Source: Aggregatilineaceae bacterium (GTDB lineage: Bacteria; Chloroflexota; Anaerolineae; Aggregatilineales; Aggregatilineaceae). Taken from it: a DNA stretch of 64,000 nt. The notes beneath the pieces were generated by a model that was given only the letters and a program-made list of their open reading frames with translations, was not told the origin of the DNA and ran no database searches. The stretch spans positions 16,148-80,147 of the forward strand of contig JAXGOS010000022.1 in NCBI GenBank assembly GCA_040767355.1, in the 5' to 3' direction. Position 1 is the stretch's first letter. Every line of letters starts with the position of its first letter. Shown piece by piece: positions 28,979 to 31,159 of the stretch. Made by a program: the position numbers and the translations under genes.

Positions 28979-30376
28979 GTGAGCATGCCAGCAGACGGTG
29001 ATCAGGCGACCACGTTTATCAGCTATTCGCGCCGGAATTCGACCTTCGCCCGGCAGTTGTATAACGATCTCATGGCGGCGGGCGTCCGCCCGTGGTTGGA
29101 CCGCTACGACATCCCCCCGGGCGCCATCTGGGACGATGCCATCCAGCACGGGCTGAACGCATGCAGCACCGTGCTGATCGTGCTGTCGAAACCCGCCATC
29201 GAGTCGCGCAACGTTCACGCCGAATGGAACTACGCCGATTCGCTGGGCAAGACATTGATCCCGCTGATCATCGAGAAGCTCGATCCCCAGTCGATCCCGT
29301 TCCGGTTGCATGGGCCGAACTGGGTGGATTTCACCGCGGGGGATTATGCGGCGGCGCTGGACAGCCTGCTGGCGGTGCTGCCGGTCACCGCGGCGCCCAA
29401 TCCCGACGCCGCGCCCGAGCCGGCGCAGCCGGTCGAGGCCCCGCTGGAAGGCGCGCCTAACCCGGTCGCCGCTGCCGCCGCGTGGAAACATGGCAACGCT
29501 GAATATCACGCGGGCAGCATGGAATCCGCCATGCAGGCCTATACCCGCGCCATTCGTCTGGCGCCGGACCGGCCCGAAGCGTACATTCACCGGGGCATGG
29601 CGTACTACTCGCTCCAACGCTACCAGGACGCGCTGGCCGACTTCACGCGGGCCGAGGAGCGCGACCCGTCGATAGCCTTGCTGTACAACAACCGGGGCGT
29701 CACGCGCCTGGCGCTCAAGCAGGTCGGGCTGGCCTTGGCCGATTTCGACGAAGCGACCATGCTCGACCCGGACTACGCCAACGCGTACTACAACCGGGCC
29801 GCGGCGTACATGGAGCTGGGCCGGCACCGGCTGGCGACCTTCCATTACTCGCGGGCCATCGCCATCAACCCGCGCGTGGCGGAGTTTTACAACAGCCGGG
29901 GCCTCAGCTACGCCGCGCAGCACCTGTACGATCAGGCGCTGGCCGATTATAATCGCGCGCTGGAGCTGGACGAGGACTACGCTGGCGCTTACGGCAACCG
30001 CGCGAACCTGTACGCCAACACCGATCGGATGACAGAAGCCCTGGCCGATTACGATCGGGTGATCGCGCTCGATCCCGAGCACATCTTGGCCTACGCGGGG
30101 CGCAGCGAGGTGCGCCTGTGCGCCGGTGAGAACGCGCTGGCTGCGCTCGACGCCTCGACGATCATCGGGCTGCGCCCTGACTTCCACGGGGGGTATGCCT
30201 TGCGCGCGCTGGCGGATTTCCGGCGCGGCAAGCGGAGCGAGGCGCTCGCGGATTACGCGCGGGCTATCGAGCGCGAGCCGGCCTGGCGCACGGAAGACGG
30301 CGCCGCAACGTATCTGACGGCCTGTCCGTATAGTGCCCTGGAGACCGTTCGCGAGATTCTGGCTGCGATGGAGTAG
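28979..30376 (+). CDS. TIR domain protein fused to about eight TPR repeats
   Basis: N-terminal TIR_2-like pattern TTFISYSRRNS...GVRPWLDRYDIPPGAIWDDAI...VLIVLSKPAIESRNVHAEWNYA...LIPLI. Pro/Ala linker. Repeated TPR consensus (AYxNRG...ALADYxRAIxLDP). The start could be GTG 28979 or ATG 28985. Confidence 0.8.
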   Translation: MSMPADGDQATTFISYSRRNSTFARQLYNDLMAAGVRPWLDRYDIPPGAIWDDAIQHGLNACSTVLIVLSKPAIESRNVHAEWNYADSLGKTLIPLIIEKLDPQSIPFRLHGPNWVDFTAGDYAAALDSLLAVLPVTAAPNPDAAPEPAQPVEAPLEGAPNPVAAAAAWKHGNAEYHAGSMESAMQAYTRAIRLAPDRPEAYIHRGMAYYSLQRYQDALADFTRAEERDPSIALLYNNRGVTRLALKQVGLALADFDEATMLDPDYANAYYNRAAAYMELGRHRLATFHYSRAIAINPRVAEFYNSRGLSYAAQHLYDQALADYNRALELDEDYAGAYGNRANLYANTDRMTEALADYDRVIALDPEHILAYAGRSEVRLCAGENALAALDASTIIGLRPDFHGGYALRALADFRRGKRSEALADYARAIEREPAWRTEDGAATYLTACPYSALETVREILAAME

Positions 30377-30385
30377 GATAGCGTT

Positions 30386-31159
30386 TTGAACGACCAACTG
30401 CTCGACCAACCGATCGTTCGCACCATCTTCCAGAACCGGCTGGCCCTGCTGGCCCTGTTGGTGGCGACTCAACTCCAGTTTTTCACGATCAACCTGGCGA
30501 ACAGCCTCTTCCGCGAGCCGACCGACGGCTGGGAGCTGAAGATCGCGTTCATCGACGATCATCTCGTACCGCAGGGCGCCTGGCTGATCCCGTATGCGAT
30601 CGGCTTTGTGGCCTCGGTGCTGGTGCCGCTGTGGGCGGCGTATGTCATGCCCAACAAGCTGTTCCGGCAGTTCGTGCTGGCCATGGCCCTCGCGGCGCTG
30701 TTCAGCTACGCGATCTACATCTTCGTCCCGACGTATGTCGTCAAGCCGGCGCCCCAGGAGGTGCCGGGCGACGATGCGCTGGCAGAGATGCTCCGTTCGA
30801 CCTACGAAGCCGATAACGCGGCCAGCACGCACAACGCCGCGCCGAGCCAGCATGTGTTCTACGCGCTGCTGAATATGTGCTTCATGATCCGCTTCCGGCC
30901 CATCCCACGCGTGTTCTGGACATGGGTGGCGCTGGCGACGCTGATCAGCGTCTCGACCTTGCTCACCCAGCGCCACAACTCGCCCGACCTGATCACGGGC
31001 TATGTGGTGGCCGTGGGCGCGTATTACGCCGGGCTGCGGCTCGGCGCGTGGGTCACCGCGCGGCTGGGCGACGAGCACGGCCCGATCGTGATGCCCCCGG
31101 CGCGCGTCGGAGCGCGCCTGCGCCAGCGCGTGGCGAAAATGCAGGCCGACTCAGTGTAG
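30386..31159 (+). CDS. polytopic membrane protein, PAP2_3 / inositol-phosphorylceramide-synthase-like (tentative)
   Basis: 5-6 TM helices. PAP2-type motifs APSQHVFYA and LLTQRHNSPDLITGY. TTG start 9 nt after the TIR-TPR stop. Family call made from motif recall only. Confidence 0.55.
   Translation: MNDQLLDQPIVRTIFQNRLALLALLVATQLQFFTINLANSLFREPTDGWELKIAFIDDHLVPQGAWLIPYAIGFVASVLVPLWAAYVMPNKLFRQFVLAMALAALFSYAIYIFVPTYVVKPAPQEVPGDDALAEMLRSTYEADNAASTHNAAPSQHVFYALLNMCFMIRFRPIPRVFWTWVALATLISVSTLLTQRHNSPDLITGYVVAVGAYYAGLRLGAWVTARLGDEHGPIVMPPARVGARLRQRVAKMQADSV

Follow-up and report, generated by a model that had tools for sequence, protein, structure and literature searches.

The locus described here raises the question of whether two adjacent genes, one encoding a protein with a TIR domain and an array of tetratricopeptide repeats (TPRs) and the other a membrane enzyme of the PAP2_3 family, form a dedicated cassette for nicotinamide adenine dinucleotide (NAD) signaling or defense. 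Both genes lie on contig JAXGOS010000022.1 of an Aggregatilineaceae bacterium, within a stretch of 64,000 nucleotides (positions 16,148 to 80,147) that is referred to below as the window, and an initial annotation of this stretch had proposed them as a new two-gene system. That claim is not supported. The TIR-TPR gene (gene 1) is instead read, tentatively and at somewhat less than even confidence, as a lineage-specific, vertically inherited and dispensable accessory gene placed between a promoter and a core PAP2_3 gene (gene 2), with which it would be co-expressed, and as encoding a ligand-gated NAD+ hydrolase. The strict adjacency of the two genes throughout one clade is real and undescribed, and TIR-repeat fusions and PAP2_3 enzymes are each of a kind already known.

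Conservation and inheritance of the gene pair

Protein searches returned around 100 clusters of PAP2_3 orthologues at an identity of at least 55%, but full-length TIR-TPR orthologues (57–87% identity) formed only about 18, all of which came from metagenome-assembled genomes (MAGs) of Anaerolineae, some of them labelled Aggregatilineaceae or Aggregatilinea. A scan of species-representative genomes was seeded with PAP2_3, and the window proteins were mapped onto the resulting 34 loci from 33 genomes. The TIR-TPR gene lies directly 5' of PAP2_3 on the same strand in 14 of these genomes, six of the 33 could not be judged for its presence, and it is absent from the PAP2_3 slot in 13 of the 27 assessable genomes, each of which has at least 1.8 kb of upstream sequence. 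Five of the TIR-less loci (L014, L022, L025, L027 and L028) carry the orthologous kinase gene, divergently oriented and directly beside PAP2_3, which amounts to the same slot minus one gene, and no remnant of TIR-TPR was detected in the TIR-less loci at E ≤ 10. A reverse test, in which metagenomes were scanned with TIR-TPR as the seed, found PAP2_3 next in line for all seven orthologues with enough downstream DNA, giving PAP2_3 downstream of TIR-TPR in 22 of 22 loci (14 genomes, locus L002 and seven metagenome contigs). A distant TIR-TPR protein, P0209, was also encountered at the end of a contig.

The dependence between the two genes is one-way, in that TIR-TPR was never seen without PAP2_3, while PAP2_3 often occurs without TIR-TPR. 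The conserved 3' PAP2-like neighbor anticipated for homologues of gene 1 is therefore present at each of the 22 loci, but the idea of a two-gene cassette does not survive the same survey. In the genomes without gene 1 the PAP2_3 protein retains 58–69% identity and all catalytic residues are invariant, and this persistence in 13 genomes indicates that PAP2_3 is a core gene with a function independent of TIR-TPR. The statement that no named system has this pairing was upheld, as neither the literature search nor PADLOC or NCBIfam yielded a paper or model joining TIR with PAP2.

The presence or absence of TIR-TPR tracks clades in a tree of PAP2_3 and the downstream aminotransferase, where the TIR-bearing genomes occupy several deep branches and most of the TIR-less genomes form one clade, with two isolated absences in addition. 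The TIR-TPR tree recovers the same subclades and is broadly congruent with it, and pairwise distances of the TIR or TPR part track the PAP2_3 and aminotransferase distances (Pearson 0.84–0.88). Ratios of nonsynonymous to synonymous substitution (dN/dS; Nei-Gojobori, nine pairs) were 0.13–0.22 for the TIR part and 0.05–0.22 for the TPR part, compared with 0.09–0.26 for PAP2_3, 0.09–0.19 for the aminotransferase and 0.10–0.28 for the kinase, with no sign in dN/dS of diversifying pressure on the presumed TPR sensor. Given the congruent trees and the similar ratios, TIR-TPR is vertically inherited and constrained like its housekeeping neighbors, under a comparable purifying selection. Among the loci with an orthologous kinase, pairwise distances of the kinase showed no correlation with the distances of TIR, TPR, PAP2_3 and the aminotransferase (Spearman ∼0), and these four intercorrelate; the mismatch could stem from saturation, from too narrow a spread of distances or from a separate history.

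Architecture and predicted chemistry of the two proteins

The TIR_2 match of gene 1 is well above threshold (E 7.9e-27, 94.6 bits against a cutoff of 28), and the protein has strong Pfam matches to many TPR families. An AlphaFold2 model built from a 17-sequence orthologue alignment (predicted local distance difference test, pLDDT, 92; predicted template modeling score 0.85) consists of the TIR domain, a linker of 30 residues, eight TPRs with an exact period of 34 residues starting at aa 165, and capping helices, with the TIR part showing alternating beta strands and alpha helices at a pLDDT of ∼90 over aa 11–133. TIR_2 and TPR families were the only Pfam matches, so that no NTPase domain of the AP-ATPase, NACHT or other type lies between the TIR domain and the repeats, and no hydrophobic segment was found; the product is cytoplasmic. 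The initial annotation was thus accurate on the coordinates of the reading frame, both domain calls, the count of about eight repeats and the lack of an NTPase domain. The start codon is a probable exception, since an in-frame ATG at 28985, two codons past the listed GTG, gives an N-terminus (MPADGDQ...) that resembles the 'MP...' of the orthologues; from this likely true start the catalytic Glu would be residue 80.

Foldseek searches with the full TIR-TPR model matched TPR proteins only, the top ones being consensus-TPR proteins and the TPR superhelix of O-GlcNAc transferase. The latter shares with gene 1 eight contiguous repeats of 34 residues and Asn/Arg residues lining the groove, but in gene 1 the repeats are fused to a TIR domain and not to a glycosyltransferase. 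One orthologue, at locus L036 (∼9250–9450), is split by two compensating frameshifts ∼190 nt apart and is called as proteins of 249 aa and 169 aa. The locus lies on the same contig as L006, in a 4.18 Mb long-read MAG, and an error of the long-read assembly is more likely than a pseudogene.

The Glu that had been placed at the catalytic position, E82 (counted from the GTG), aligns with the catalytic E642 of SARM1 on the alphaC helix (NVHAEW versus WVHKEI) and is invariant in the 17 orthologues, which bears out the original placement. An exhaustive HMMER search with the TIR domain found Glu at this position in 447 of the 470 nearest TIR domains, the closest non-orthologous ones being at most 41% identical and mostly from multi-TIR proteins without other domains; a TIR-only query of a word-indexed protein database returned three fragments only and was uninformative. 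The SARM1-like FISY(S/A)R strand and the PPG/Gly of the BB loop are conserved in the orthologues. Sequence similarity to solved TIR structures is marginal (E ∼0.02), and as the Foldseek match list held nothing but TPR proteins, the position of E82 comes from sequence alignment and not from superposition. The likeness to the NAD+ hydrolases SARM1 and AbTir therefore extends to the TIR_2 fold, the N-terminal FISYxR strand, the BB-loop Gly and the Glu on alphaC, whereas the regulatory part is a TPR superhelix in gene 1, ARM-SAM in SARM1 and a coiled coil in AbTir.

A further difference concerns the aromatic residue of the WxxxE motif, four positions before the Glu. This residue is W638 in SARM1 and W204 in AbTir, but Asn (N78) in gene 1, whose orthologues have N, S, H or I there; among the 470 nearest TIR domains the position holds Y, F, W or His in 83% and Asn in 6%. 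An aromatic was present here in every cyclase TIR analyzed by Manik et al. (bioRxiv 10.1101/2022.05.07.491051), who found that the W204A variant of AbTir loses most 2'cADPR (cyclic ADP-ribose, cADPR) production and that the aromatic is less conserved in TIRs that make only ADP-ribose (ADPR) or are inactive in vitro. Because it is replaced by Asn, production of a cADPR-isomer messenger by gene 1 is unlikely, which argues against the NAD-signaling role proposed at the outset, and the domain, if active, would be a plain NAD(P)+ hydrolase.

The TPR array is most conserved where a ligand would bind. Five of the helix-A groove positions (2, 5, 6, 9, 12 and 13) have conservation values of 0.82–0.96, with position 13 at 0.75, whereas the outward positions of helix B reach 0.60–0.76, and Asn/Arg residues lining the groove are conserved at helix-A positions 6 and 7. 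Greater conservation of the groove than of the outer face would be expected if the ligand is conserved. The linker core L-P-x-[TS]-x3-N-P-x-A-A-P (LPVTAAxNPxAAP) is kept in 24 of 24 orthologous loci and is modeled at a pLDDT of 84–89; the motif could act as a cis-bound peptide ligand of the TPR groove. Two other candidate ligands were rejected, namely the response regulator tail, as these tails are hypervariable, low-complexity and without a common motif, and the PAP2_3 tail, which is alike in genomes with and without TIR-TPR.

Gene 2 matches PAP2_3 (PF14378; E 9.5e-13, 48.8 bits against a cutoff of 27), and its His/His/Asp site is intact, with PSQH (aa 153–156), H197 and D201 invariant in 26 homologues. 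The AlphaFold2 model (pLDDT 89) has six transmembrane (TM) helices, in keeping with the 257-aa PAP2-type protein of five to six TM segments described originally, and loop charges (positive-inside rule) point to an N-in/C-in arrangement. This would put the C2 and C3 loops outside the cytoplasm, where other membrane PAP2 enzymes have them too. Foldseek ranked human SMSr (8ijq), Aur1 (9ivc) and an inositol phosphorylceramide (IPC) synthase (9vj4) highest and then LpxE and PgpB, all of them weak matches (E 6e-3 to 8e-2, TM-score ∼0.45). With SMSr/Aur1 and PgpB/LpxE gene 2 shares the six-TM core and the C2 His and C3 His/Asp on what is predicted to be the same, outer face, but the PAP2_3 profile has no sequence match to solved PAP2 structures in the PDB and the canonical C1 motif KxxxxxxRP is absent, with invariant K120 and R137 located 17 residues apart in one loop. 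Gene 2 is best described as a putative sphingomyelin synthase (SMS)/IPC-synthase-like His-His-Asp lipid phosphotransferase or phosphatase on the outward side of the membrane. The suggestion that it is a direct effector of the TIR product is not favored, as the hand-over would be topologically awkward with the PAP2 catalytic loops predicted outside and TIR-TPR in the cytoplasm.

Genomic neighborhood and expression signals

The features of the locus are collected in Table 1. The two genes belong to a block with the order membrane histidine kinase/response regulator, [TIR-TPR], PAP2_3 and Asp-type aminotransferase, which is syntenic over an Aggregatilineaceae-like clade of Anaerolineae. The divergent two-component pair and the downstream aminotransferase reported originally were both found, but the aminotransferase had been termed unrelated, whereas it is part of the same conserved syntenic block as the two-component pair.

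Table 1. Coordinates of the features at the TIR-TPR/PAP2_3 locus (window numbering).
Feature	Position	Strand	Basis and remarks
Receiver-only response regulator with Pro/Ala-rich low-complexity tail	26614..27144	-	Pfam Response_reg only; block member
Membrane-embedded histidine kinase, 5-6 TM, no large extracytoplasmic domain	27171..28694	-	HisKA + HATPase_c; divergent from gene 1
AT-rich divergent promoter region	28695..28978	.	GC 0.47; TATAAT-type site, CAGTATACAC
Gene 1, TIR-TPR, 465 aa from GTG, cytoplasmic product	28979..30376	+	Open reading frame + Pfam
TIR_2 domain, aa 13-131	29015..29371	+	Pfam; E82 codon 29222-29224, N78 codon 29210-29212
Linker motif LPVTAAPNPDAAPEP, aa 134-148, between TIR and TPR array	29378..29422	+	Conservation in orthologues
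Eight TPR repeats, aa 165-436, superhelix, then C-terminal capping helices to aa 464	29471..30286	+	Pfam + AlphaFold2
Gene 2, PAP2_3 membrane enzyme, 257 aa from TTG	30386..31159	+	PSQH (C2) 30842-30853; H197..D201 (C3) 30974-30988
Aspartate/prephenate-type class I aminotransferase	31299..32612	+	Closest database matches
Terminator-like hairpin	32622..32641	+	Consensus match only

Kinase orthologues (62–82% identity) were found in the block at 22 loci, five of which are metagenome contigs, and five of the 22 loci are without TIR-TPR. The kinase has five hydrophobic segments within aa 46–189, and response regulator orthologues (57–76% identity) adjoin it in related loci. In three loci (L017, L018 and L026) the kinase genes have been relocated downstream of the aminotransferase, with the block still together. 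Most relatives have two receiver-only regulators and the window has one; the regulator tails are Pro/Ala-rich, low-complexity and hypervariable, with lengths of ∼45–215 residues and internal repeats in some species (e.g., L021). Orthologues of the aminotransferase (68–92% identity) lie 3' of PAP2_3 in most loci, making it the most conserved syntenic neighbor of PAP2_3. It was considered as a sphingolipid-type (Spt-like) partner of an IPC-synthase-like enzyme, but its best matches are Asp/prephenate aminotransferases and not alpha-oxoamine synthases. A TIR-less subclade (L003, L010, L031 and L038) has a PAS/GAF multi-sensor histidine kinase of ∼1125 aa upstream of PAP2_3 on the same strand, and PAP2_3 therefore adjoins some sensor kinase in many genomes.

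The wider surroundings in the window are of a housekeeping nature and include xseA, a short-chain dehydrogenase resembling enoyl-ACP reductase, an L,D-transpeptidase, TetR with two acyl-CoA dehydrogenases, a cytidylate-kinase-like gene, the nuo operon and ATP synthase. There were no tRNA genes nearby in the window, no mobile-element or defense families among the neighbors scanned, and no orthologues of either gene in IMG/VR viral contigs or PLSDB plasmids. PADLOC reported no system and no model match for PAP2_3; for gene 1, PADLOC and NCBIfam gave partial matches at the level of the TIR domain (Aga_TIR, SAVED-TIR, ThsB and the Thoeris type III ThcB4). Together with vertical inheritance and purifying selection, these results lend no support to the reading of the locus as a conflict system in a defense island. 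A Ser/Thr protein kinase of 912 aa with C-terminal TPRs is encoded ∼10 kb away (15913–18651, minus strand), beside a 398-aa pentapeptide-repeat protein (14541–15737, minus strand), and its kinase domain gave the sole nearby PADLOC matches, strong but generic, to the PD-T4-6 and mad6 kinase models.

A gap of 9 nt separates the TAG of gene 1 from the start of gene 2, as the initial annotation had it, and this distance is 9–12 nt in the window and its nearest relatives. A TATAAT-type promoter-like site (28916–28944) lies 41 nt before the ATG at 28985 and was the only promoter-like match in the region scanned, while the hairpin 3' of the aminotransferase was the only terminator-like one on the plus strand between 28500 and 32800. 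From the short gap, the upstream promoter-like site and the terminator-like site beyond the aminotransferase, it is likely that genes 1 and 2 are co-transcribed in this genome, and the aminotransferase is possibly on the same transcript as PAP2_3. The intergenic DNA upstream of gene 1, singled out earlier as the most AT-rich of the window, does have the lowest GC content over 200 nt (0.47, compared with 0.665 for the window), but it shares this value with 44576–44775, and low GC is normal for a divergent promoter region of a high-GC genome.

Within this region, an AGTATAC[AC] element (CAGTATACAC, 28823–28832) is found in 17 of 17 loci where the kinase is divergent and adjacent (the window, L002, L007, L008, L014, L015, L019, L021–L023, L025, L027, L028, L036, L043, L044 and L049), at 27–185 nt from the kinase start, and is absent in loci with the kinase elsewhere. 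It probably supplies the minus-strand kinase promoter with its −10 box, as it reads TATACT in that direction. The element was rejected as a shared operator or RNA element, since its presence goes with the kinase gene and with neither TIR-TPR nor PAP2_3; the promoter region gave no Rfam match. A tandem direct repeat, TAACGTTAT/TAACGTAAT, is located at 28839–28857, with a third related copy at 28813. This repeat, which the closest relative (L007) does not share, is possibly a regulator-binding site.

Competing explanations and implications

If gene 1 is a co-expressed accessory hydrolase, the following course of events may be envisaged. A conserved endogenous peptide or protein would occupy the TPR groove, the resting-state occupant possibly being the protein's own LPVTAAxNPxAAP linker, and an exchange of ligand would lead to TIR–TIR assembly. 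The assembled TIR domains would hydrolyze NAD(P)+ to ADP-ribose and nicotinamide without forming a cADPR-isomer messenger, so that the output would be local or global NAD+ consumption, as a growth arrest or metabolic switch, expressed with envelope-lipid remodeling. PAP2_3 would act as an SMS/IPC-synthase-like phosphotransferase or phosphatase on the outer face of the membrane, and the membrane-embedded sensor kinase of the block would fit such an envelope or membrane-state theme.

Several points weigh against this interpretation. NADase activity of the TIR domain is a deduction, and so are the ligand of the TPRs and the substrate of PAP2_3; most characterized bacterial TIR proteins serve anti-phage defense, and vertical descent and purifying selection are also compatible with a defense gene. 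The cytoplasmic tails of PAP2_3 are the same with or without TIR-TPR and show no sign of co-evolution, and the strict adjacency could be a historical accident inside one clade. As all loci go back to a single ancestral arrangement, the 22 cases cannot be treated as independent and are weak evidence of functional coupling. The gap between gene 1 and PAP2_3 also ranges from ∼0 to 270 nt over the relatives (∼185–270 nt in some), and a TATAAT box lies ∼100 nt upstream of PAP2_3 in TIR-less relatives, so that co-transcription is not guaranteed everywhere.

Gene 1 could instead be a single-gene sensor-effector of abortive infection or programmed death, in which the TPRs sense a phage protein or guard a host protein, the TIR domain depletes NAD+ and PAP2_3 is a chance neighbor. 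Anaerolineae are filamentous, and this explanation gains from that lifestyle, from the invariant catalytic Glu, from the partial matches to defense TIRs and from the dispensability of the gene, which is missing in about half of the related species, as is typical of accessory defense genes. TIR domains fused to repeat arrays that form superstructures are, moreover, known from the conflict systems of multicellular prokaryotes (Kaur, Burroughs, Iyer and Aravind 2020; PMC7159879). Unlike those systems, gene 1 has no STAND, AP-ATPase or other NTPase domain to act as a switch and no vWA-MoxR or peptide-processing partners, and it is a single-copy orthologue in one fixed chromosomal slot, with a tree congruent with its neighbors, and not a gene of variable or mobile context. 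The groove is the most conserved surface of a sensor without a diversifying signal, and neither the scanned neighbors nor the viral and plasmid collections place the gene among defense or mobile elements. Thoeris fits no better, as the likeness is limited to partial TIR-level matches to the ThsB and ThcB4 models (42 bits for ThcB4 against a cutoff of 220), no ThsA-type SIR2, SLOG or Macro effector was present among the neighbors, and the cyclase-associated aromatic is missing. Gene 1 thus differs from Thoeris, from the STAND-type conflict systems, from cyclase TIRs and from the genes of a mobile defense island, and abortive infection is considered a doubtful, though not far-fetched, explanation.

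Whether the TIR domain is catalytic at all may also be questioned, because it has no WxxxE aromatic, the residue that contacts substrate in SARM1 and AbTir and is less conserved in TIRs inactive in vitro (Manik et al.). TIR-TPR would then be an adaptor or scaffold without NAD+ chemistry, for example for envelope biogenesis proteins or for the receiver-only regulators of the adjacent two-component system, which need a protein target, and TPRs are classic scaffolds. The invariance of the Glu, the FISY(S/A)R strand and the BB-loop PPG would be unexpected if catalysis had been lost, however, and the regulators have tails without a conserved motif and persist where TIR-TPR is absent, which leaves this alternative improbable. 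In a genuine two-gene system, PAP2_3 would be a membrane effector or immunity partner under the control of the TIR product or of TIR-TPR itself. This explanation draws on the same-strand adjacency at all 22 loci, kept even where the kinase genes have moved, and on the narrow gap in the window and its nearest relatives. It is judged highly improbable in view of the intact PAP2_3 of 13 genomes without TIR-TPR, the predicted separation of the two proteins across the membrane, PAP2_3 termini that have no feature specific to TIR-TPR genomes, the absence of the aromatic linked to messenger (cyclase) production, and the lack of any PADLOC model match for PAP2_3.

The tentative reading of gene 1 as an accessory, ligand-gated hydrolase thus stands as the preferred one, and its significance depends on the role of the gene. 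A resident abortive-infection gene would be an ordinary finding. The specific proposal that TIR-TPR is a non-immune NAD+ hydrolase in membrane or envelope homeostasis of filamentous Anaerolineae, gated by a conserved endogenous peptide that possibly displaces the linker and co-regulated with an SMS/IPC-synthase-like lipid enzyme and a membrane-embedded two-component sensor, is unlikely, but if true it would give a bacterial TIR enzyme a physiological role of a housekeeping type. Characterized bacterial TIR enzymes belong almost entirely to anti-phage immunity or are toxins, whereas TIR-TPR behaves as a stable chromosomal gene, held in a fixed slot by vertical descent and purifying selection, with a conserved putative ligand groove and a strict link to a membrane-lipid enzyme. 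A role as an endogenous regulator, if correct, would widen the range of functions of bacterial TIR domains and would make TIR activation that is gated by TPRs, with no NTPase switch involved, accessible to study.

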